From: Thermoplasmata archaeon
Lineage (GTDB): Archaea; Thermoplasmatota; Thermoplasmata; Lutacidiplasmatales; UBA184
Direction: 5' to 3'
Assembly (NCBI GenBank): GCA_028864975.1
Contig: JAGWLG010000050.1
Span: 1-14,828, forward strand
DNA: 14,828 nucleotides
The position numbers and the translations under genes were made by a program. The notes under the pieces are model-generated. The model had not been told where the DNA came from. It did not search any database and worked only from the letters and a program-made list of their open reading frames with translations. Below, one piece after another: positions 2,534 through 14,828 of the stretch. Position 1 is the stretch's first letter. Each line of letters starts with the position of its first letter.

Positions 2534-3292
2534 CTACTTGCCCTTCTTGGCCGGAGCGGCGGCCTTCCCGCCCGCCTCGGCCTTCGCGGGCTCGGCCTTC
2601 TTTCCCGCCGCCTCGCCCTTCTTGCCGCCGGCCTCTTCCTTCTCCTTCTTCCCGCCGGCGCCCTCTTCCTTCTTCTCGCCCTCGGCCGCAGCCCCCTCGG
2701 CGGCCGCTCCTTCGACGGGTGCGGCCTCCTCCTTCTTCTTCTCCTCGATGAGGGGCGCGATGGCCGCGTAGCGCGTCTCTTCGACCAGGCCCGCGTGCTC
2801 GATGACCTCGACGCGCGTGGGGGTGGGCAGCTTGCATGCGGCCTTCCTCAGGGCCTCCTTGGCCTCCGGGATGTTCTCGGAACGGCAGGAGAGCGTGATG
2901 AGCGGCTCGTTGATCTGCGCGCGCACGGCGTGGCCCACGGGCTTGCCGAAAGCTCCGCGCATTCCGTCCGAGATACGGTCCGCGCCGGCCCCCGTGGCCA
3001 TCTTGTGTTCGCGCAGGATCGCGTGGGGATAGCGTCGGACCTTGATGTGGAAGTTGTTCGAAGCGGCCTTGTCCATCACCCGGACGATGGAGACCCGGGC
3101 GGCCTCGAGCGCACGGTCCTGGACGTTGCAGGCCTCCTCGGCTCGGAGCGTGAACTGGTACTTGTACCGCTGGTGGGGGTTCCCCGTGTCGAACTGCGTG
3201 ATCCGACAGTGAGGGATGCCTCCCATGTACTCGGTCCGGGTGTAGATCTGTCCCTCGATCTCCCGGTACATCCGGTTCGGCTTGCGGGTCAT
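2534..3292 (-). CDS. rpl10e: 50S ribosomal protein uL16 (L10e) with a C-terminal low-complexity extension
   Basis: RKPNRMYR...YTRTEYMGGIP..RITQFDTG; ALEAAR; YPHAILREHKMATGAGADRISDGMRGAFGKPVG; ALRKAACKLP are diagnostic of archaeal uL16. Confidence 0.97.
   Translation of the reverse strand: MTRKPNRMYREIEGQIYTRTEYMGGIPHCRITQFDTGNPHQRYKYQFTLRAEEACNVQDRALEAARVSIVRVMDKAASNNFHIKVRRYPHAILREHKMATGAGADRISDGMRGAFGKPVGHAVRAQINEPLITLSCRSENIPEAKEALRKAACKLPTPTRVEVIEHAGLVEETRYAAIAPLIEEKKKEEAAPVEGAAAEGAAAEGEKKEEGAGGKKEKEEAGGKKGEAAGKKAEPAKAEAGGKAAAPAKKGK
2537..2746 (-). repeat. Low-complexity K/E/A/G coding tail with short repeats (GAAAE x2, GKK x3)
   Basis: EEKKKEEAAPVEGAAAEGAAAEGEKKEEGAGGKKEKEEAGGKKGEAAGKKAEPAKAEAGGKAAAPAKKGK at the end of uL16. 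Confidence 0.8.
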
Positions 3293-3348
3293 GGGCGAAT
3301 CCCCCAGAGGGGGCCCTTCTTGAGGATTACCTCTCGTTCGAGGGCGCC

Positions 3349-4293
3349 CTAGGGGGGGTGCAGGGTAAGGGGAGCGGCCCCCCGCGAGCCCACGTGCACC
3401 CTCCAGGGCGTGAGGTGCGCCCTGCGGAGCGTGGATAGGAGCCGCATCTCGGCCTCCTCATCGGGGGCCCATGTCAACAGCGTGTTCCCCAGCATCGCTT
3501 GGGCCGCGCGACACCCCTGTTCCCGCAACGACGCGATGACCACCCGCAACGCCGAGGGAGCGAGACCAAGATCATCGGTGAAGCGCTCGAAGACCTGCAG
3601 GGCGTCGTCCCATCGGAGCGGCGGGGAGCCTAGGGTGCGTACCCAGCGCTGCGCGGCCGAGCTCACGCGTTCCAGGAACGCCGGGTCGGAGAGCAGTGGA
3701 GGGGAGGGGAGCGAGGCTCCCGTGGTCGCCAGGAAGAACCCGAGCTGGAACATCGTCCGCTCGATGTGGCCGTGAGGAGGGAGCCCGGCGGTCCTGCGGA
3801 CCTCCAGCCCCCCGCCAAGGATGGCGGGGACCCCGCCTAGGCCTCCGTGCAGCTCGATCTCCGCCCGGTGGGCCGCGGCGTGGGCCGCCTCTGGGGGAAG
3901 CCCCATCGCGGTCGCGGCGGCGAGCGCAGACGCGAGGGAGCCCGCCGCGCTCATGCTTAGCCCTTGGGCGATGGGGAGCTCGTGCACCAGTTCCACCCGG
4001 ACAAGGTGGTCCTTGGCCCCGGGAAGGTTCGCCACGGCCCGCTCGGTGATCGGCAGGGAGGCGGGGCGCCCTCGGTCGGAGACCTCGACCCGGCCGGTCC
4101 CGGGGGCGACCGGCCACACGTGGGCACGCGCCCTTGCCCCCAGATCTAGTACGACACCTGCCCCAAGGGATCCCCGAGCGAGGGGGTCCGAGGGGGCGAG
4201 CACCGGTTCGAAGATCCCGGTGACGTGGCCAGGGGCGAAGGCGGCGGCCCACGAGCCCGATGGAGGGACCGGTGGGGGCATCCGCCTGTTCAA
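3349..4293 (-). CDS. pok: Pantoate kinase-like GHMP kinase (archaeal CoA biosynthesis); ATG at 4281 is an alternative start to TTG 4293
   Basis: AFAPGHVTGIF..V, GSLGAGV.L, GHMP ATP loop LPIAQGLSMSAAGSL, AH.AE...GGLG, GGGLEVR..AG.P and AQAMLGNTL match the PoK family. The usual GLGDV reads GLGGV here. Confidence 0.8.
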   Translation of the reverse strand: MNRRMPPPVPPSGSWAAAFAPGHVTGIFEPVLAPSDPLARGSLGAGVVLDLGARARAHVWPVAPGTGRVEVSDRGRPASLPITERAVANLPGAKDHLVRVELVHELPIAQGLSMSAAGSLASALAAATAMGLPPEAAHAAAHRAEIELHGGLGGVPAILGGGLEVRRTAGLPPHGHIERTMFQLGFFLATTGASLPSPPLLSDPAFLERVSSAAQRWVRTLGSPPLRWDDALQVFERFTDDLGLAPSALRVVIASLREQGCRAAQAMLGNTLLTWAPDEEAEMRLLSTLRRAHLTPWRVHVGSRGAAPLTLHPP

Positions 4294-5749: not shown

Positions 5750-6796
5750 CTACGGGCGCGAAGGCGCTCCGAGCATCCGGTCGTACCGGTGGTTGACGGG
5801 CGTCACGAGCCCGGTGAGGGGGGTCCGGAAGACCTCGATCCCCTTCAGGAAGGACTCCAGCGTCGCGGAGACCGAGGCCCGGGGGACTCCCGGCTTCTCG
5901 GGCGCGGGACCCGCGGCGGCGAGAGAGCCTAGCAGGAGTCGCCGTCCATCGCACGCGAACAGGAAAGGGCTCAACCGGCAGCCGTCGACCAGCGCGTGGA
6001 GGAGCGCGAGAGGCTCGCTCTTGGGGAGAAGCTCGCCCTGGACGAAGGCCAGGTTCTCGACCTTCCATCCCCCCATCTGAAGGAGCTTCTGCGGGTCGAG
6101 GAACACCCGCCGCTGGACCCATCCGCGCTCCATCGCTCTGCGCTGCGAACGGGGGACGAAGAAAGGGGCCGCATGCACCGCGCTCCGCCCCTGCGCCTCG
6201 AGCTCGAAGGGGCGACGCACGAGCCCAGCGAGCGTGGAGCGGGCGCCGGGTGAGATCTGCGCCGCTTCGTCACCTTCGGATCTCACGCTCGACCTCCATC
6301 CGTGAGGGTAGGCGAGGGACCCGGTCAGTCCAGCCCAACGCCCCCAGGACCCCTCGAAGTCGAAGTAGACCGGGAGCCCTGAACTGCGGCTATCGACGGT
6401 GAGGGCTGAGTGCCTGCGGAGCGCGCTGACGTCCGAAACCTCCTGGACTCCCGGGACCCTGACGTTCGTCTCTGAGGTCGCCAGGACCACGAAGACGTAC
6501 TGGGGACCCTTCCAGAAGTGCACCACGCGGGGGTCGGCGCCCCACGACTCGATCACGGCGCTGAAGCGCTCGACGAACGGCTCGCCGAGGACGAACGTCA
6601 GGAACGGACGCGAGACCATGACGGGGTCGGGCAGGTAACGGTCGACGATCCATCCCTCCTCGTAGGCCCTCGACCGGATGCCTCGGAAGGTGCGGGGGGG
6701 GATGCCGGACTCCTGGATCCGCTCCCGCTCCGAGGAGGGAAGGGCGGCCAGCATGGCCCGCACCACCGACGCCTCCCCCGCGGTGAGGTTGCGCAA
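5750..6796 (-). CDS. Putative transcriptional regulator, Lrp/AsnC-like winged HTH with internal duplication (paralog 1); start revised to TTG 6796 (ORF track extends to ATG 6868)
   Basis: LTAGEASVVRAML...S.RERIQESGIPPRTFRGIRSRAYEEGWIVDRYLPDP resembles the Lrp/AsnC N-terminus (LD..D..IL..L.....S..ELA..vGlS..TV..RikrLee.GvI.gy.a.iDp). A second GWV.RRVFLDP motif occurs mid-protein. Aligns along its full length with 11708..12748. Confidence 0.7.
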   Translation of the reverse strand: MRNLTAGEASVVRAMLAALPSSERERIQESGIPPRTFRGIRSRAYEEGWIVDRYLPDPVMVSRPFLTFVLGEPFVERFSAVIESWGADPRVVHFWKGPQYVFVVLATSETNVRVPGVQEVSDVSALRRHSALTVDSRSSGLPVYFDFEGSWGRWAGLTGSLAYPHGWRSSVRSEGDEAAQISPGARSTLAGLVRRPFELEAQGRSAVHAAPFFVPRSQRRAMERGWVQRRVFLDPQKLLQMGGWKVENLAFVQGELLPKSEPLALLHALVDGCRLSPFLFACDGRRLLLGSLAAAGPAPEKPGVPRASVSATLESFLKGIEVFRTPLTGLVTPVNHRYDRMLGAPSRP

Positions 6797-6897
6797 GCCC
6801 GGGGACCCCCCTGAGAGAACGTAGCACGTGCGGCCACGTTTCGAGGTTCCCGAAGCCGCCCCGTTCATGTAGTTCGCGGTCCCCCTGGACCGTCACC
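6797..6897. promoter_or_regulatory. Divergent control region of cassette 1: conserved block A (6821-6834), central palindrome (6838-6856), conserved block B with TATA-like TTCATGTA (6855-6882)
   Basis: Ungapped alignment to 12761-12832 at offset 5950: block A 11/14 and block B 24/28 identical. Palindrome GTTTCG-N7-CGAAGC is centred on 6847. Confidence 0.7.
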
Positions 6898-9800
6898 ATG
6901 ACCCCAGGAGCGGGCCCCTGGCTTCCTGCCTCACGCGTGAACGATCTCCGAAGGCGAACCCTTGGGAGGCTGTTGCTGGTCGGGGTTTGGGCCGCGGTGC
7001 TACTCATGCTGCTGCCCAGCGGGGCGTCACCCCACGCGGCGCTCTCCTCATCTCCCCCCGGTGAACCTACCGAGGTGGTCGGGACACGTGAGGTCGCCTC
7101 TTCCCTCGCCTCGGTCGGAACGACCTGGACCCAGCTGTGCCCGTCGTGCGGGCCCTCGCCTCGAGGGGACTCGGCGGAGACCTACGACCCCGCGCTTGGG
7201 TACACCCTCCTCTTCGGCGGGGGGGATGCCTCGAGTGTCCGCCTAGGGGACACCTGGAAGTTCGAGAACGGGAACTGGACGCTGCTGCACCCCGTGACCT
7301 CCCCCACGGCTCGTCAGGGTGCCGAGATGGTCTACGACCCCACGGACCACGAGGTGGTGCTGTTCGGTGGCCTGGACAACTCCCGGAACGTTCTGAACGA
7401 CACCTGGGTTTTCGTCGGCGGGAACTGGACAGCGCTCTCCACGCCCCATGCCCCCGCCCCGCGCTACGACACGGCGATGGTGTGGGATGCCTCCGACGGC
7501 TATGTCCTGCTCTTTGGCGGCTGCCAGGTCGGTTGCGCGTCGACCTTTGGCGACACCTGGAAGTTCCTCGGGGGGGGCTGGACCCAGCTCACTCCGACCA
7601 CGTCGCCCTCGACCCGGGGATGGGTCCCGATGACGTTCGACACGGCGGACGGCGATGTCGTGATCTTTGGCGGGTGCGCCCCGAGCTACGTTTCGCTCGC
7701 CGACACCTGGACCTACCACGCGGGGCTCTGGACCCAGATCTACCCCTCCGCACGCCCCGCGGCACGTTGTGGCGGGCTGAACATGGTCTTCGACGCGTCG
7801 CTCGGGTACGCGATGATGTTCGGCGGCTCGGACAACGGCACGATCCTCCTTGACACTTGGTCGTGGGCCTCGGGAGCGTGGACCCAGCTCTCTCCTGCGG
7901 TCTCCCCCGCGGGCGGTCCTCTTCTTGCGGATGACCCCGCGCAGGCGGGCGTCATGGGCTTCGGTGGGACCATCGGGTGCAACAACTGTGTCGACAACAA
8001 CACTTGGCTCTACCACGATACCGTACCGACCCCGCTCGGCATCTCCTCCTTCTCCGCGTCAAGTTCGGGGGTCGCACTAGGCCAAAGCGTAACCTTCTCG
8101 GTCGTCGCGAAGGGGGGCACCCCTCCCTACACCTTCGCCTACGCCGGGCTCCCGAAGGGATGCTCGTCGGCGAACACCGCCTTGCTCAGTTGCGCGCCAG
8201 CGGCCCCCGGGACCTCGACGACGCGCGTCTACGTGAACGACACGGCGTCGGGCACGGTCTCCGCAACGACCACCCTCGACGTGTACGCCCCGATCTTCCG
8301 CAACTGGACCGAGATCTGTGCGACCTGCGGACCCCTGCCCCGGGGCGACGACCCGATCGCCTACGACCCCATCGACGGCTACACCCTGCTCTTCGCCGGT
8401 GGCACGTCGGTGTCCAACCTCTACAACGACACCTGGATGTTCAGGAACGGCCTCTGGAACCAGCTCCACCCCTCGAGGGCCCCGGTCCCGATGCAGGGGC
8501 CCGACCTGGTCTGGGACCCGGTGGACCATGAGTTCGTCCTCTTCGGAGGCCTGGATACCGGCAGGGTCACCCACAACGAGACGTGGGTCTTCTCCCCGAC
8601 CACCCTGGACTGGACCGAGCTCTCGACCCCTCACGCCCCCGTGCCTCGATACGACGGGAGCATGGTCTGGGACACCTCGGATGGATACGCCCTGCTCTTC
8701 GGAGGGTGCCTGGTCACCTGCAAGCCTACCCTCGGCGACACGTGGACGTTCGTCGGAGGGACCTGGACCGAACTTTCGCCGGCGACCGCTCCGTCCTCTC
8801 GGGGGTGGGCCCCGATGTCCTACGACTCTGCCGACAACGAGGTCGTGCTCTTCGGGGGAGCGGCCCCGAACTACGTGCCACTGGGCGACACGTGGACCTT
8901 CCACGCTGGGAGCTGGACCCAGATCTTCCCCGCCCTCTCCCCTTCGCCCCGCTTCAACGGCATCCAGGGGTTCAACGACGACCCCGCTGTCGGATATGCG
9001 GTCATGTATGGGGGCGGGAACGACACGACCAGCTTCCCTCAGACGTGGGCGTTCCGAGGGGGGAGCTGGACCCCGTTCACCACAGCGGTCTCCCCGGGCC
9101 TGAACGGTGACATGGGGAGCGTCTACGATGCGTCGGCGGGGGGCATGATCATCTTCGGGGGTGGGAGCCCCATCGACAATGCCACCTGGATCTTCGGGCC
9201 GTGGGTCGCCCCGCTCGGCATCCAGCAGTTCGTGGCGAGTCCCGCGGTAATCCCCCTCGGAGGGTCCACGACCCTGACCGTCCAGGCGGTCGGAGGCACA
9301 GCGCCCTATCACTACGCGTACAGCGGTCTCCCGGCGGGCTGCACGAGCACCAATGTCGCCAGCCTCCCATGCTCCCCCTCCGCGGTCGGCACCTACAGCG
9401 TTGATGTGTGGGTCAATGACTCGGCCTCCGGAAAGGTCTCGTCCACGACGAGCTTCACGGTCTACCAACCGATCTTCCACAACTGGACGGAGATCTGCGC
9501 GGCCTGCGGGCCCTCCCCTCGCGGCGACGCCCCGCTCGCCTACGACCCTGTGGATGGCTACACCCTGCTCTTCGGTGGGGGGTCGGGCCCCTCCTACGGC
9601 CCGCGGCTCAATGACACCTGGATGTTCCATAACGGGGTATGGACGCAGCTCCACCCGGCCCACACTCCCGTCGGGCTCCAGGGAGCGGACCTGGTCTGGG
9701 ACCCGACCGACCACGAGTTTGTCCTGTTCGGGGGGCTCGACGGCAATCGGATCACCCACAACGAGACCTGGGCCTTCTCCCCAGTCACCCAGGACTGGAC

Positions 9801-11694
9801 GGAGCTCTCGACCCCACACGCGCCCGCGACACGGTACGACGGGAGCATGGTCTGGGACGCGGCCGATGGCTACGTCCTCCTCTTCGGGGGATGCTACGTC
9901 ACCTGCAAGTCCGTCTTGGGCGACACCTGGAAGTTCCTGGGGGGGACATGGACAGAGCTTACCCCCGCGAGCGTCCCTTCGGCCCGTGGTTGGGCGCCGC
10001 TGACCTACGATTCGGCGGACAGCGAGGTCGTCCTCTTCGGAGGAGCGGCGCCCAACTATGCCGCGCTTGGCGACACCTGGCTGTTCAAGGGCGGGACCTG
10101 GACGGAGATCTTCCCATCCACCTCTCCTGCGGCGCGCTGGAACGGGCTTCAGGGCTTCAGCGACGACCCCGCGCTGGGCTACGCGGTCATGTACGGCGGC
10201 ACCACGGGGGCGGTCAGCCTCTCGGACTCTTGGGCGTTCAAGGCGGGGACCTGGACGCAGGTCACCACCGCGACGAACGCCGGCACGAACGGGGACATGG
10301 GCATGACCTACGACGCGTCGGCCGGTGGGGTCATCATGTTCGGGAACGGTCAACCGGGAACGATCGACAACTCGACCTGGATCTACGGCCCCTGGAGCCC
10401 TCCACCCCTCTCCGTCTCCCTGACCGCGGCCCCGAGCCCGACCGACTCAGGGTCCCCGGTCGACCTCACCGCGACCTCGAGCGGAGGGGCGGGCTCCATA
10501 TCCTACGCGTTCGCCTTCGGCGACGGGAGCCTCGCCTCCGGGATGGGCCCAAAGGTGAACCACACCTATGCTCGGGCCGGGACTTACGTCGCCACAGTCT
10601 GGGCGAACGACTCGGTCTCACAATCCGCTTCCGCTCAGGCCTCGGTGGTCATCCTCCCCCCAATGGTGGTCTCGCTCCAGGCGAGCCCGAACCCCGCGGT
10701 GCTTGGAAGCCCGGTCGCTTTCACCTCCACGGTGAGCGGCGGCCTGGGACCCTACACCTACGCCTGGAACTTCGGGGATGGAGGGCTGGGCGGCAACCTC
10801 GCGAACATCACGCACATCTTTGCCACCAACGGGCCCTTCACGGTGGTCCTCTCCGTCCGGGACGCGAACGGGATCACCGCGTATGGCTCGCTGCAGATCT
10901 CGATCCTCCTGCAGGTCGACATGTCCGCGAACGTCACGCTCGGGGCGACCCCTCTGGTCACGGCGTTCACGAGCTCGGTCACGGGTGGGGTGGGACCCTA
11001 CGCCTACGCGTGGGTGTTCGGCGACGGTGGGACGAGCAACGTAGCCTCCCCGACCCACACCTACACGGTCGCGGGGAGCTACTCTGCGAAGCTGACGGTC
11101 ACCGACGCGGCCGACCACACGGCGGTGCGCACCTGGAACCTGACCGCGTTCTCGGGTGGAGGGCCTCTTCAGGTCGCCTTGAACGCGAATCCCAGCCAGT
11201 TCTATCTTGGGAACTCGACCCTGATCTCCGCCGCCATCACCGGCGGACATGGCGGGTACGTCGTCAGCTGGTCCACGCTCCCTACCTGGTGCTCGGCCTC
11301 AGGGCTGACCTCGCTCTCCTGCAAGCCGACGGTCACCGGGAGCTACACCTTTGAGCTCACGGTTACGGATGCGGCCGGTTCGACACAGACAGGCTCGGTC
11401 ACCATCCATGTCCTGGGGCCGAACCAGAAGACCACGAGCCCGACGGGGCCCTTCGGGCTCCCGGCGACGCTCGGCTGGACCGTGGTCGTCCTCCTGGTGG
11501 TCGCGGCGTTGGCGATCATCCTCGCGGTCACCTACGAGGCACGCCGCCGCTCCCGACGGGTGCCGCCCCCTCCTGCTCCCATTTCCGGGGTCGGTGCGTG
11601 GGCTCCCCCCTCACCCGCCGGCCCCACGGCTCCTGGAGAGCGCAAGCCCATACCCCCTTCGGGGGAAGGGGACCATCTGAGGGACCTGTTCTGA
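6898..11694 (+). CDS. Large membrane-anchored surface protein (1598 aa): signal peptide, 3 six-bladed Kelch-type propellers separated by Ig-like domains, 3 PKD domains, Ig-like domain, TM helix, Pro-rich cytoplasmic tail
   Basis: Blade motif P.PR...m.yD..dgy.llFGG......DTW.f..g.Wt repeats 18 times. PKD signatures y.w.FGDG....HtY...G.Y at 10408-11151. Hydrophobic WTVVVLLVVAALAIILAVTY followed by RRRSRR. Confidence 0.92.
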   Translation: MTPGAGPWLPASRVNDLRRRTLGRLLLVGVWAAVLLMLLPSGASPHAALSSSPPGEPTEVVGTREVASSLASVGTTWTQLCPSCGPSPRGDSAETYDPALGYTLLFGGGDASSVRLGDTWKFENGNWTLLHPVTSPTARQGAEMVYDPTDHEVVLFGGLDNSRNVLNDTWVFVGGNWTALSTPHAPAPRYDTAMVWDASDGYVLLFGGCQVGCASTFGDTWKFLGGGWTQLTPTTSPSTRGWVPMTFDTADGDVVIFGGCAPSYVSLADTWTYHAGLWTQIYPSARPAARCGGLNMVFDASLGYAMMFGGSDNGTILLDTWSWASGAWTQLSPAVSPAGGPLLADDPAQAGVMGFGGTIGCNNCVDNNTWLYHDTVPTPLGISSFSASSSGVALGQSVTFSVVAKGGTPPYTFAYAGLPKGCSSANTALLSCAPAAPGTSTTRVYVNDTASGTVSATTTLDVYAPIFRNWTEICATCGPLPRGDDPIAYDPIDGYTLLFAGGTSVSNLYNDTWMFRNGLWNQLHPSRAPVPMQGPDLVWDPVDHEFVLFGGLDTGRVTHNETWVFSPTTLDWTELSTPHAPVPRYDGSMVWDTSDGYALLFGGCLVTCKPTLGDTWTFVGGTWTELSPATAPSSRGWAPMSYDSADNEVVLFGGAAPNYVPLGDTWTFHAGSWTQIFPALSPSPRFNGIQGFNDDPAVGYAVMYGGGNDTTSFPQTWAFRGGSWTPFTTAVSPGLNGDMGSVYDASAGGMIIFGGGSPIDNATWIFGPWVAPLGIQQFVASPAVIPLGGSTTLTVQAVGGTAPYHYAYSGLPAGCTSTNVASLPCSPSAVGTYSVDVWVNDSASGKVSSTTSFTVYQPIFHNWTEICAACGPSPRGDAPLAYDPVDGYTLLFGGGSGPSYGPRLNDTWMFHNGVWTQLHPAHTPVGLQGADLVWDPTDHEFVLFGGLDGNRITHNETWAFSPVTQDWTELSTPHAPATRYDGSMVWDAADGYVLLFGGCYVTCKSVLGDTWKFLGGTWTELTPASVPSARGWAPLTYDSADSEVVLFGGAAPNYAALGDTWLFKGGTWTEIFPSTSPAARWNGLQGFSDDPALGYAVMYGGTTGAVSLSDSWAFKAGTWTQVTTATNAGTNGDMGMTYDASAGGVIMFGNGQPGTIDNSTWIYGPWSPPPLSVSLTAAPSPTDSGSPVDLTATSSGGAGSISYAFAFGDGSLASGMGPKVNHTYARAGTYVATVWANDSVSQSASAQASVVILPPMVVSLQASPNPAVLGSPVAFTSTVSGGLGPYTYAWNFGDGGLGGNLANITHIFATNGPFTVVLSVRDANGITAYGSLQISILLQVDMSANVTLGATPLVTAFTSSVTGGVGPYAYAWVFGDGGTSNVASPTHTYTVAGSYSAKLTVTDAADHTAVRTWNLTAFSGGGPLQVALNANPSQFYLGNSTLISAAITGGHGGYVVSWSTLPTWCSASGLTSLSCKPTVTGSYTFELTVTDAAGSTQTGSVTIHVLGPNQKTTSPTGPFGLPATLGWTVVVLLVVAALAIILAVTYEARRRSRRVPPPPAPISGVGAWAPPSPAGPTAPGERKPIPPSGEGDHLRDLF
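7126..10386 (+). repeat. Intragenic tandem repeat of a propeller+Ig module, period 1179 nt (393 codons)
   Basis: Equivalent Trp codons at 7126, 8305 and 9484; RGD codons at 7162, 8341 and 9520; Ig-like domains at 8032-8286 and 9211-9465. Confidence 0.9.
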
Positions 11695-11707: not shown

Positions 11708-12748
11708 CTACGAACGGACCAATCGGTCGTAGCGGTGGTTCACGGGAGCCCTGAGCGAGGTCAGCGGGACGCGGGTAACCTCGATGCCTTCCAGGTAGTT
11801 CCCCAAGGTTGCCGACACCGATGTGCGCGGCGCGGAGCTTGAGACGGTGGAAGGCGGGAGCGGGGAGACCGCGCCGAGGATCAGGCTCGTCCCGTCGGAC
11901 GCGTACAGGTAGGGGGTCACGAGGCAGCGCGTGACCAGCTCCTCGAGGAGGCGGTCCGGGAGCGAGCCTCGCAGCATCCTACCATGGATGAAGACCAGGT
12001 TTTCGATACGAGGGGCTTGAAGAGCAGAGAGGTGCACGGGGTCGAGGAAGACACGTCGGTGGACCCAGCCTTGCTCCAGGGCCCGGACCTGCGAACGCGG
12101 GAGGAAGAAGGGTGCGTTGAGGTTGGGAGGCCGTCCGGAGCTTTCCACCTCGAAGGGCCGGTTGACGAGCCCAGCGACCGAGACCCTAGCAGGAGCTGAT
12201 GGAAGCCGAGGGGCCGTTGCCCCGGGTTCGCGAGGGACCGAGGTCCAGCCATGGGGGTAGGCGAGGCTTCCCTGAAGCCCAACCGCTCGACTCCAAGCGG
12301 CTTCGAAATCGAAGTAGATCGGGAGCTGAGCAGCACGCGTGTCGAGGGTTAGAGCGAATTGCCGTCGGAGCGCCCTCCCGTCCGAGACATCGCGGATGCC
12401 CGGCAGAGAGGGCTTGGGCGAGCTTCCGAGCCTGACCGCCAGCAGGCCCTGCGGAGAGGTCCAGAGGAGGACGATACGGGGGTCGGCTGACCAGGTCTCC
12501 AGAACTGCGCTGGCGTGCTCGACGAAGGGTTCGGCCAGAATCAGAGTGACAAAGGGGAGCTCGAGGAGGCCGGGCTGCGGTAGATACCGGTCCACGATCC
12601 ACCCCTCCGAGAGAACCCGACCCCGGACGTCGGTGAAAGTTCGGGGAGGGATTCCACTGCCTCGGATCCGGTCCCGCTCAGGCAGGTCCTCGCACGCGAG
12701 TAGCGAGCGGACCACCGCCGCCTCGGCCGGGGTCACGCCTCGGGACAC
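11708..12748 (-). CDS. Putative transcriptional regulator, Lrp/AsnC-like winged HTH with internal duplication (paralog 2)
   Basis: GTG start. Roughly half of the residues match paralog 1 by eye, including SGIPPRTF, EGWIVDRYLP, EPFVE, ADPR, YFDFE, GSLAYPHGW, PFF.PRSQ, GWV.RRVFLDP, SVSATL, GIEV and PVNHRYDR. Confidence 0.75.
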   Translation of the reverse strand: MSRGVTPAEAAVVRSLLACEDLPERDRIRGSGIPPRTFTDVRGRVLSEGWIVDRYLPQPGLLELPFVTLILAEPFVEHASAVLETWSADPRIVLLWTSPQGLLAVRLGSSPKPSLPGIRDVSDGRALRRQFALTLDTRAAQLPIYFDFEAAWSRAVGLQGSLAYPHGWTSVPREPGATAPRLPSAPARVSVAGLVNRPFEVESSGRPPNLNAPFFLPRSQVRALEQGWVHRRVFLDPVHLSALQAPRIENLVFIHGRMLRGSLPDRLLEELVTRCLVTPYLYASDGTSLILGAVSPLPPSTVSSSAPRTSVSATLGNYLEGIEVTRVPLTSLRAPVNHRYDRLVRS

Positions 12749-12846
12749 CGGGTCACGCCCCTGTCAAACTGTAGCATTCGCGGCACCGCGTACAGTGAGC
12801 GTACGCCGACCCGTTCTTGTAGTTCACGGACCGACTCCCTCCCGCC
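12749..12846. promoter_or_regulatory. Divergent control region of cassette 2: block A (12771-12784), perfect palindrome GCGTAC-N7-GTACGC (12788-12806), block B with TATA-like TTCTTGTA (12805-12832)
   Basis: Homologous in position and sequence to 6797-6897; read directly from the sequence. Confidence 0.7.
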
Positions 12847-14828
12847 ATGTCCCGCGGAAACCACAACTCTGCGCCGAGCTACAGCGCGAACCGACGCTTT
12901 TGGATGAGGACCCGATCGAGCCTGATCCTGGTTGCCGCAATCACGCTCCTCGTCGCCCTTCCCCAACCCGGACTGGGGGCACGCCCAGGTACTCAAGCGT
13001 CTCCTCACGCAAGCTCGGCAGGCGGGCTTGCTCCTACTTGGAAGCAGTTCTCGAGCCCAGCGAACGTCTCAGCTTCGGATGCGGGCGGTGGCTACCTGGT
13101 CTGGGACCAGGCCGAGCATCTGGACACCTACTGGGACCCGAACTCGGCTTCGAACCATCTCTACTACTTCTACGCTGGCAATAGCACATGGCGAGTCGGC
13201 CCTGAGATGCGTAACATGTCGAGCCGACTTGGGGCCAACGAGTGGATCATCGGTGCAGCGTACAATTGGCAAGACGGAGTCATCGATGTGACCGTTCAGG
13301 CCCAGGGAACTTGCGCGCCTTCGGGCTACGTGTGCTTCTTCACCTACGCGCACGGGAACATGACCCGGATTGGGTCGTTCGCGCAGGGCAGCTGTTACGG
13401 CCTTTCGGCCTGGGACCCAATGGATCACTACGTATGGTGGATCTCAACCGGCGGAAATGGCGACACTTACGCAATCATCAACAACACGGTAACCCAGCTC
13501 TCGGCACCGGCTCCGGCTTCGAACTGCAACACGGGGAACGCTGTTTGGGACCCAGTGCATGGCTACCTTGTCCTTGCCCTCGGAACCAGCTACGGGTTCT
13601 CCACATTCGTTGGAGGCACTTACTCGGCCATGTCGTCGCCCTATGGCTGCAATGATCCCATCTTGGCTTTCGACCCAGACCCGTCCATTGATACGGTCGT
13701 CTCCTACGGCTGCTACACCGGCGGAGTGGACTCCGACGAGTACACCTGGGGGGGTACGAGCTGGAGTAACATGGGGGTGCCCTCTGCAACTCCGCCCTCT
13801 ACCGACTCGGGGAGTTTGGGAGGGTTCGACCCCATTCTCGGCCGGGAGCTTATCGTCACGGGAACCTACTCTGCCGGTGCGGACGGGCTCTGGTCGCCTG
13901 GGGTCGGGATTGCGCCGGGCCCGCTGATGGTCAGCGCTTCGGGGTCCCCCCTGAGCGGACGCGCTCCGCTCACGGTATCACTTGCCTCCACACCGTCGGG
14001 GGGAAGTGGTACCTACTCGACCTTCTCCTGGCACCTTGGGGACGGAAACGTGGCTGCCACGCAGACCCTCGTACACACTTACTCCTCTGCGGGCACCTAC
14101 TATGCGTGGGCCAATGTGACCGACTCTCTCGGATCCACCGCCATGAGCAACGTCTTGGTAATCACCGTATCCCCACCGCCTCCACTCTCCACGAATGCCT
14201 CGGTTTCCCCGCGGAGTGGCCCCCTCGGAACGAACTTCCAGTTCTCCTCGGTAACCACGGGAGGCAGCGGGACGTACACGTGGAGCTGGAGGTTCGGTGA
14301 TGGTAGCTTCTCGATCTTGTCTGCACCGTCACACGCTTACGCGCGTGTTGGATCATACACCGCCAGGCTCTGGGCAAACGACACCACCGGGGCGAGCGCC
14401 ACAGGATCGGTCTCCGTTCAGGTCTACCAGCCCATCTTCGGCAATTGGACGGAGATCTGTTCGTCATGCGGTCCGGAACCTCGTGGGGACGCGGCTATGG
14501 CCTTCGACCCGGTCGATGGCTATACGGTCATGTTCGGTGGAACTCCCGGGTTGCCTACGTTCTACAACGACACCTGGGCGCTTTCGAGTGGGGTCTGGTC
14601 GAAACTCCAGCCCGCGGTTTCCCCAAGCGCACGCCAGGGCGCTGTGATGGCGTTCGATCCCACGGACGGCTACCTCGTCCTCTTCGGCGGATTCGATGGG
14701 AGCGTGCTGTTGAACGACACCTGGACGTACTCTGCGGGATCTTGGACGAATCTTCACCTCTCCCACTCTGCCTCCCCCCGGTACGACGCGAGCATGGTGT
14801 GGGACGCCAAGGACGGCTACCTCCTTCT
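12847..14828 (+). CDS. Second large secreted surface protein, 3'-partial: signal peptide, divergent N-terminal propeller, 2 PKD domains, then a Kelch-type propeller like those of 6898..11694
   Basis: Hand translation from ATG 12847 (in-frame TAG at 12820-12822 upstream) is open to the window end, 660 codons: MSRGNHNSAPSYSANRRFWMRTRSSLILVAAITLLVALPQPGLGA...WDPMDHYVW...WDPVHGYLVL...FSWHLGDG...HTYSSAGTY...WRFGDG...HAYARVGSY...VYQPIFGNWTEICSSCGPEPRGDAAMAFDPVDGYTVMFGG...NDTW. It is absent from the ORF track because it has no stop in the window. Confidence 0.92.
   Translation, partial: MSRGNHNSAPSYSANRRFWMRTRSSLILVAAITLLVALPQPGLGARPGTQASPHASSAGGLAPTWKQFSSPANVSASDAGGGYLVWDQAEHLDTYWDPNSASNHLYYFYAGNSTWRVGPEMRNMSSRLGANEWIIGAAYNWQDGVIDVTVQAQGTCAPSGYVCFFTYAHGNMTRIGSFAQGSCYGLSAWDPMDHYVWWISTGGNGDTYAIINNTVTQLSAPAPASNCNTGNAVWDPVHGYLVLALGTSYGFSTFVGGTYSAMSSPYGCNDPILAFDPDPSIDTVVSYGCYTGGVDSDEYTWGGTSWSNMGVPSATPPSTDSGSLGGFDPILGRELIVTGTYSAGADGLWSPGVGIAPGPLMVSASGSPLSGRAPLTVSLASTPSGGSGTYSTFSWHLGDGNVAATQTLVHTYSSAGTYYAWANVTDSLGSTAMSNVLVITVSPPPPLSTNASVSPRSGPLGTNFQFSSVTTGGSGTYTWSWRFGDGSFSILSAPSHAYARVGSYTARLWANDTTGASATGSVSVQVYQPIFGNWTEICSSCGPEPRGDAAMAFDPVDGYTVMFGGTPGLPTFYNDTWALSSGVWSKLQPAVSPSARQGAVMAFDPTDGYLVLFGGFDGSVLLNDTWTYSAGSWTNLHLSHSASPRYDASMVWDAKDGYLL

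Follow-up and report, generated by a model that had tools for sequence, protein, structure and literature searches.

The window analysed here, the whole of a 14.8-kb contig (68% GC) that is part of a 3.6-Mb Thermoplasmata MAG, raises the question of whether each of two neighboring paralogous regulators has an operator of its own. Besides archaeal housekeeping genes recognized by Pfam (PAN, NMD3 and a GHMP-type kinase), it carries two tandem cassettes, each made of a ~345-aa minus-strand gene divergent from the gene of a very large Kelch/PKD protein, with a shared control region of ~100 bp per pair. At the center of each control region a 6-7-6 palindrome had been flagged, GTTTCG-AGGTTCC-CGAAGC at 6838-6856 in cassette 1 (5/6 positions complementary) and GCGTAC-AGTGAGC-GTACGC at 12788-12806 in cassette 2 (6/6). 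The original prediction took them for paralog-specific operators, each read by its own Lrp-type regulator and insulated from the other. Both palindromes are found in the sequence as described. At an offset of 5950 the two control regions can be aligned gap-free and are 59% identical across the 101 intergenic nt, and this alignment confirms that the palindromes occupy identical coordinates in its least conserved part. Three arm positions are changed on both sides between the two, with complementarity retained.

Regulators, targets and their family

The cassette 1 regulator gene (5750-6796, minus strand) encodes 348 aa from TTG 6796, the start chosen by a gene caller (product P0001). That of cassette 2 (11708-12748, minus strand) encodes 346 aa from GTG 12748, or 342 aa from GTG 12736 according to the gene caller. 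The two proteins are 53% identical. Neither start is secure: the cassette 1 frame stays open upstream through 6797-6868 to an ATG at 6868, across the whole control region, with TTG being the likely start, and cassette 2 offers a GTG at both 12748 and 12736. The palindrome centers had been placed ~50 nt from the start codons on both sides (51/51 and 49/50 nt), which holds only for the starts chosen and is as insecure as these are (ATG 6868, TTG 6796, GTG 12736). The targets lie on the plus strand. The first (6898-11694) encodes a secreted or membrane-anchored surface protein of 1598 aa with Kelch-propeller and PKD domains by Pfam, and the second (12847-14826), a PKD and Kelch surface protein also recognized by Pfam, runs off the contig end. 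Both have a signal-peptide-like N terminus.

No Pfam match was obtained for 41 members of the regulator family at E values up to 10, which leaves them outside Lrp/AsnC by sequence, and no source record gives a protein name or a Pfam domain for the regulator. The family profile matched FL11/PH1519 weakly (E 0.005), over the whole N-terminal unit. The AF2 model of the cassette 1 regulator (pLDDT 90.8, pTM 0.90) begins with a winged HTH (wHTH) followed by a RAM domain (beta-alpha-beta-beta-alpha-beta), which is the Lrp/AsnC fold, and it contains two such HTH-RAM units in one chain, as in the fused architecture of NirDL. Model residues 1-156 aligned with ~30 Lrp/AsnC structures over 132-145 of ~150 residues (Z 6.3-7.8); Foldseek gave E values of 3e-5 to 1e-2 for Lrp/AsnC matches, with 2e-6 cited for the tandem fold. 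The best full-length match was NirDL (Z 12.2, 262 residues aligned, model residues 6-345), and an internal repeat connects residues 43-58 to residues 220-235, linking the wings of the two wHTHs. By this model the regulator is, at the fold level, a fused double Lrp/AsnC unit. The tandem fold match makes the predicted term “Lrp-type” right at that level, although the Pfam thresholds are not reached.

Seven paralogs of the regulator are encoded in its genome. Of 24 further genomes searched within its taxonomic family, 23 contain it, compared with none of 16 from neighboring families; all named records are Thermoplasmata MAGs. Copy number ranges from 1 to 10 per genome, each copy lying beside a secreted surface-protein gene. 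Our cassette set comprised 76 upstream regions (68 non-redundant), later joined by 49 more non-redundant ones; the replication tests, run with frozen parameters, used 17 new non-redundant cassettes fetched after the first set. Nearly all cassettes face a gene with a signal-peptide-like start that encodes either a Kelch/PKD protein or a domain-less WAYG-motif protein. Pfam searches left several targets of the other cassettes without a domain, and in many non-Kelch/PKD targets (L011, L013, L014, L015, L017, L022, L024, L035) a WAYG motif directly follows the signal peptide. The WAYG targets would seem to make up a so far undescribed family of secreted proteins associated with the regulator family. 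In a relative (L077/L078, GCA_027376515.1, locus 2640-4032), a Methyltransf_24 gene and then another regulator paralog of 346 aa come after the cassette; the clustering of cassettes therefore recurs.

Architecture of the control regions

Across the family, the control region follows one order: regulator start, TAGCAC box, 8-nt half-site, 14-nt spacer, inverted 8-nt half-site, TATA-like block and target ATG. The left box reads TAGCACGT in cassette 1 (6822-6829, 25-31 nt from TTG 6796) and TAGCATTC in cassette 2 (12772-12779). Its consensus, T[AGC]GCA[CT]G[CG], had a PWM match at +25 to +34 from the regulator start in 44 of the 68 non-redundant cassettes. The left half-site abuts the box: it is GCGGCCAC in cassette 1 (6830-6837, core GCGGC at 6830-6834) and GCGGCACC in cassette 2 (12780-12787, core CGGC at 12781-12784). 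Beyond an unconserved 14-nt spacer (6838-6851 in cassette 1) comes the right half-site, which is GAAGCCGC in cassette 1 (6852-6859, core GCCGC at 6855-6859), where 6/8 positions pair with the left half-site, and TACGCCGA in cassette 2 (12802-12809, core GCCG at 12805-12808), where only the 4-bp core pairs (4/8). The two half-sites form a wide dyad with arms of 6-8 bp lying ~22 bp apart, center to center, and spacers of 14-18 nt.

A BRE/TATA-like block of the target promoter follows on the plus strand, CCCGTTCATGTAGTTCGCGG at 6860-6879 in cassette 1, conserved in all clade members, and CCCGTTCTTGTAGTTCACGG at 12810-12829 in cassette 2. The right half-site ends 5-8 bp before its AT-rich run (in the window, 6852-6859 before 6865-6874), and family-wide an AT-rich peak stands at outward positions 13-19, reading TGTAGTT in the window and TGTAAG, TTTAAG or TTATAT elsewhere. 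The target ATG at 6898 follows the end of TGTAGTT by 24 nt, which would make the target mRNA leaderless or nearly so; this distance agrees with a weak genome-wide AT peak at -30 to -26 before start codons. Because a crude genome-wide promoter consensus derived from long ORFs showed no clean TATA or BRE motif, we can only infer a TATA role for TGTAGTT and for the TAGCAC box. The original prediction drew on archaeal Lrp-type activators such as Ptr2, which bind palindromes just upstream of the BRE/TATA. A dyad-symmetric element does lie just upstream of the target BRE/TATA position, between the divergent TATA-like blocks, and it is the wide dyad rather than the flagged palindrome. We also asked whether the half-sites could be BREs, one for each divergent promoter, and rejected this, as they differ per cassette, unlike a general promoter element, and lie 5-8 bp from the AT-rich block.

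The left box may mark the TATA position of the regulator gene or be a site for the second wHTH. In one genus, an in-frame ATG is found no more than 6-9 nt past the box, at odds with a TATA role. Comparing the left box with the region beyond the right half-site gave 2.0-2.5 matches of 8 at all shifts, and thus no extended symmetry. A third conserved block, a C-run followed by TG(T/A)(C/G)A (TGTCA or TGACA), stands on the side of the left box that faces the regulator start, at 6807-6818 in cassette 1, at 12759-12768 in cassette 2 and at the same place in other cassettes. Its T, G and A columns are invariant in the clade alignment, and across the family a C-N-T-G pattern recurs outside the left box, 9-12 nt away. 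The CAT of this block is, in one genus, an in-frame regulator ATG. The block may be a G-run or SD-like element on the minus strand, or else a promoter-proximal element.

Two further observations concern the spacer and the surroundings of the box. Some clade members have an AT-rich 14-nt spacer, reaching 64-71% AT in GC-rich genomes (L084, L087, L089, L090); these spacers, and 6838-6851 in the window, tend to start with TTT and end with AAA, a symmetry that was non-significant in the test applied. An AT-rich spacer may be a bending region or the regulator’s own TATA element. Perfect short palindromes of Lrp-like geometry are centered on the left box in some cassettes, for instance GACACCGT-AGC-ACGGTGTC and CATGCTA directly followed by TAGCATG. 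Such a palindrome is seen at about +18 to +40 from the regulator start in a cassette of the same genome (L003, contig C115), and also in L018, L007, L068 and L069. Palindromes of 6/6 with a short spacer start at +12 to +20 in 12-13% of cassettes, compared with a background of 3-4%, and short palindromes of Lrp-like form are confined to the surroundings of the left box, where some clades have them. They may represent a second, autoregulatory site.

Symmetry at the palindromes and at the wide dyad

In DNA of 68% GC, a lone 5/6 or 6/6 palindrome is expected by chance. A co-located pair of at least 11/12, with any spacer of 0-15, arose in 70 of 2000 column shuffles of the 101-nt region, which preserve composition and the identity pattern, the palindrome arm length having been picked post hoc. 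The co-location of the two palindromes is therefore only weakly beyond chance. A search for the longest perfect inverted repeat over the whole region, scored against dinucleotide shuffles, was non-significant (6 of 68 cassettes at p<0.05), and position-anchored tests were used in its place. The left box is their only anchor, so 44 of the 68 cassettes were usable.

The prediction expected additional cassettes to carry a palindrome at the same position, and it fails here. In five of the seven other clade members, the close relatives L009, L031, L010, L033 and L077 (the last by sequence inspection), 0-1 of 6 positions pair, and the family at large lacks the palindrome as well. The exact 6-7-6 geometry reached at least 5/6 in 4 of the 44 anchored cassettes, namely the two discovery ones, L082 and L039. 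L082, a clade member with 43% identity, has GATTTG-N7-CAAAGC (5/6), and these two additional cases make a role in a subset possible. Among the 40 other family cassettes at the same anchored position, with the discovery pair excluded, 6-7-6 symmetry scored 1.95 within cassettes and 1.74 across them (z 1.3), and in the 17 new cassettes it scored 1.18 and 1.38, respectively (z -0.9). In the nine-member clade alignment 46% of the cells were paired versus 41% after shuffling (62/500), the outermost G-C pair being the only one retained. Short-spacer palindromes showed no positional peak at +36 to +50, over the spacer, and inner palindromes within spacers were not enriched over shuffles (z 1.5). The cassette 1 palindrome consists of the variable spacer (6838-6851) plus 5 nt of the right half-site, and its center lies 2.5 bp to the right of the wide-dyad center. 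The flagged palindromes are most likely a chance symmetry in GC-rich DNA.

The wide dyad behaves differently, and it is there that the predicted pattern of kept symmetry and changed sequence is found across the family, not at the 6-7-6 palindrome. When the 8-mer after the box was compared with the 8-mer 14 nt further on, 3.9 of 8 positions were complementary within cassettes and 2.9 across cassettes (z 6.0-6.5; 0/20000 permutations). With free spacing z was 5.4, and the best spacer was exactly 14 in 21 of 44 cassettes. Taking a single representative from each of the 16 protein clusters at 45% identity leaves the signal in place (z 3.5-4.2). When every one of the 190 six-mer geometries was scored, the window cassettes being excluded, three concentric wide dyads came out on top and the 6-7-6 geometry 33rd. 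At the exact geometry the 17 new cassettes gave z 2.4, rising to z 3.8 (2/20000) when spacers of 12-16 were allowed, and perfect dyads such as CCGACA-N15-TGTCGG and CCGCAA-N15-TTGCGG occur among them. In the nine-sequence clade alignment, 69% of the dyad cells were paired versus 61.5% after shuffling (0/500), covariation was 0.243 versus 0.083 (0/500), and slid controls gave 17-58% paired. Two-sided changes are found within the clade, for example from GCGGCA/TGCCGC to GTGGCA/TGCCAC. Orthologous groups keep their half-sites while the spacer varies, as with GTCCAA-N16-TTGGAC in four species. Perfect 6/6 inverted repeats with a spacer of 14-22 start at +28 to +41 in 15 of the 68 cassettes, versus 3-4% elsewhere outside the regulator coding region; within that coding region, local inverted-repeat peaks reach up to 15%.

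The half-sites are clearly different in five of the seven cassettes of the same genome. The window cassettes are the most recent duplicates; their dyad cores, GCGGC/GCCGC and CGGC/GCCG, are nearly the same, and cassette 2 combines a weak dyad (4/8) with a perfect inner palindrome. Because both cassettes share nearly the same dyad core, the insulation claimed for these two paralogs is not borne out.

Recognition of the dyad and competing explanations

Taken together, these comparisons of sequences suggest, with a probability of about 0.6, that the conserved regulatory element is the wide dyad, a candidate operator of the double-Lrp regulator, and not the 6-7-6 palindrome. Two regulator chains would bind the dyad through the first wHTH of each. 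At the right half-site the regulator would control the surface-protein promoter, and at the left half-site and box it would autoregulate its own gene. Against the wide-dyad reading count the weak dyad of cassette 2, the limit of the anchored tests to 44 of 68 cassettes, the non-significant whole-region search, the inverted-repeat peaks in the regulator coding region, and a half-site spacing of ~22 bp compared with 13-17 bp for the classical Lrp site. Lrp/AsnC regulators bind as dimers to a (semi)palindrome of 13-17 bp with an A/T-rich center; they also form higher oligomers and take a small-molecule effector at the RAM interface.

Half-site type follows the type of the first recognition helix (HTH1): PRSTYHA occurs with GTCCA, P(P/S)RT(F/Y) with GCGGCA-like half-sites and SRT(S/A)YH with CGTGC. 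Half-sites thus seem to track the first recognition helix, an association that is confounded by shared descent. The lock-and-key co-evolution with the HTH that had been proposed for the palindromes would accordingly apply family-wide, at a different element from the one flagged.

Could the inner 6-7-6 palindromes still be private operators, perhaps acquired after the duplication, that insulate proteins sharing an outer dyad core? With outer cores nearly the same, any discrimination must lie elsewhere, and HTH1 does differ between the two regulators of the window, at residues 38, 39, 40 and 42. The 13-bp half-site spacing of the palindromes is nearer to that of classical Lrp sites, and the co-located 5/6 and 6/6 matches with their three two-sided changes, as well as the 5/6 matches of L082 and L039, speak for the same idea. 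It has to contend, however, with the five close relatives that barely pair, the single outermost pair kept in the clade, a family score that is low once the discovery pair is left out and a replication score below the cross level, the missing positional peak and spacer enrichment, a center displaced from that of the dyad, and spacers that lack the AT-richness of FFRP sites (PMC2715240). We find this quite improbable. Even less probable is that the wide dyad is a nucleic-acid structure, a 5' leader hairpin or a cruciform, in which complementarity rather than sequence is selected. Complementarity does survive two-sided changes, as a stem would show, and transcription may run through the region. 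The dyad lies between the two TATA-like blocks, however, upstream of both, and arms of 5-8 bp with unconserved loops of 14-20 nt would be weak. Single-strand folds of the control regions were no stabler than shuffles (z -0.1 to -0.9), an Rfam scan of the window returned no match, and half-site type follows recognition-helix type.

A third model is a refinement of the wide-dyad model and compatible with it. Here a single chain would occupy a composite site, with its nearly invariant second wHTH (PRSQRR, regulator residues 215-224, encoded at 6125-6154 on the minus strand) on the TAGCAC box and its variable first wHTH on the adjacent 8-mer, 8-9 bp apart center to center as in an Lrp dimer, and the right half-site would be a second, weaker site about three turns away. 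Of 42 cassettes that have the box, 38 carry Gln218 in the second recognition helix, compared with 8 of the 24 that lack the box (Fisher 2e-6, a value that ignores kinship), and the genus with TRPEHR in the second helix has no box, yet keeps GTCCAA half-sites and PRSTYHA in HTH1. The box-centered Lrp-like palindromes of some clades, such as GACACCGT-AGC-ACGGTGTC, and the spacing of Lrp sites at two to three turns (PMC2995911) would also fit. Both recognition helices are nevertheless about equally variable overall, the box also lies where a regulator TATA is expected by symmetry with the target promoter, and the association with Gln218 is confounded by phylogeny and by cassettes with a different upstream context. 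We consider the composite site unlikely.

Returning to the wide dyad as operator, archaeal Lrp activators bind a few bp upstream of the BRE, with two or three helical turns separating their sites (PMC2995911). For the surface-protein gene, activation in the manner of Ptr2 is slightly favored over repression, together with autoregulation, because the right half-site lies just upstream of the BRE and the spacing is in whole helical turns (PMC2995911). Such activation might proceed through TBP recruitment. Like Ptr2, LysM and Ss-LrpB (PMC2995911), the window regulators have a wHTH and RAM fold and genes that lie beside their target, which in those systems is often divergent; the dyad resembles their sites in its position a few bp upstream of the BRE/TATA, a likeness of position only, and in its whole-turn spacing. 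Autoregulation from the shared control region is known for those regulators and would be expected in the window system. Unlike them, the window regulator fuses two Lrp units in one 345-aa chain with no Pfam match, and its dyad has arms of 6-8 bp ~22 bp apart with a free spacer that is not AT-rich, where they use a site of 13-17 bp. A further difference is the expansion of the family to 1-10 copies per genome, each by a secreted surface-protein gene.

Two other proteins are close in sequence or structure. FL11/PH1519 of Pyrococcus (PDB 2cyy, 2e1c), the best profile relative of the regulator, matches it in fold with Z 7.2-7.6. FL11 has just one such unit, and its binding site consists of 5-6 bp arms that flank an AAT/ATT center (PMC2715240), a form seen in neither the flagged palindromes nor the wide dyad. 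The siroheme decarboxylase NirDL/AhbA-AhbB (PDB 4ch7, 4czc, 4czd), the only solved full-length match, shares with the regulator its two Lrp/AsnC-like units, in one chain or as a heterodimer. It is, however, an enzyme of heme d1/heme biosynthesis with no known operator, whereas the regulator has Arg-rich motifs in both recognition helices and lies in the context of a surface-protein gene rather than heme genes; no heme genes were seen in the window, and the neighbors examined were all surface-protein genes. A literature search on fused or tandem Lrp regulators and on Kelch/PKD surface proteins of Thermoplasmata found nothing relevant. What is new is the expansion of the family, its association with surface proteins and a wide dyad that covaries.

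A broader scenario, which we put forward tentatively, is that a lineage-restricted double-Lrp family has co-diversified with private wide-dyad operators through an HTH1-to-half-site code, giving each surface-protein gene an insulated switch, and that the inner palindromes are possibly newly evolving discriminators in the window pair. Co-located palindromes in two paralogs are weak evidence alone, and more cassettes can shift the call to a neighboring element. If the wide dyads are operators, the family would provide paralogous regulator-operator pairs by the dozen within a single fold, with several to a genome, and the differences in half-site and helix would be material for a recognition code of archaeal Lrp-type wHTHs. 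It would then be a system for asking how duplicated regulators avoid cross-talk, and would give a first handle on the control of very large Kelch/PKD surface proteins in uncultured soil and peat Thermoplasmata.
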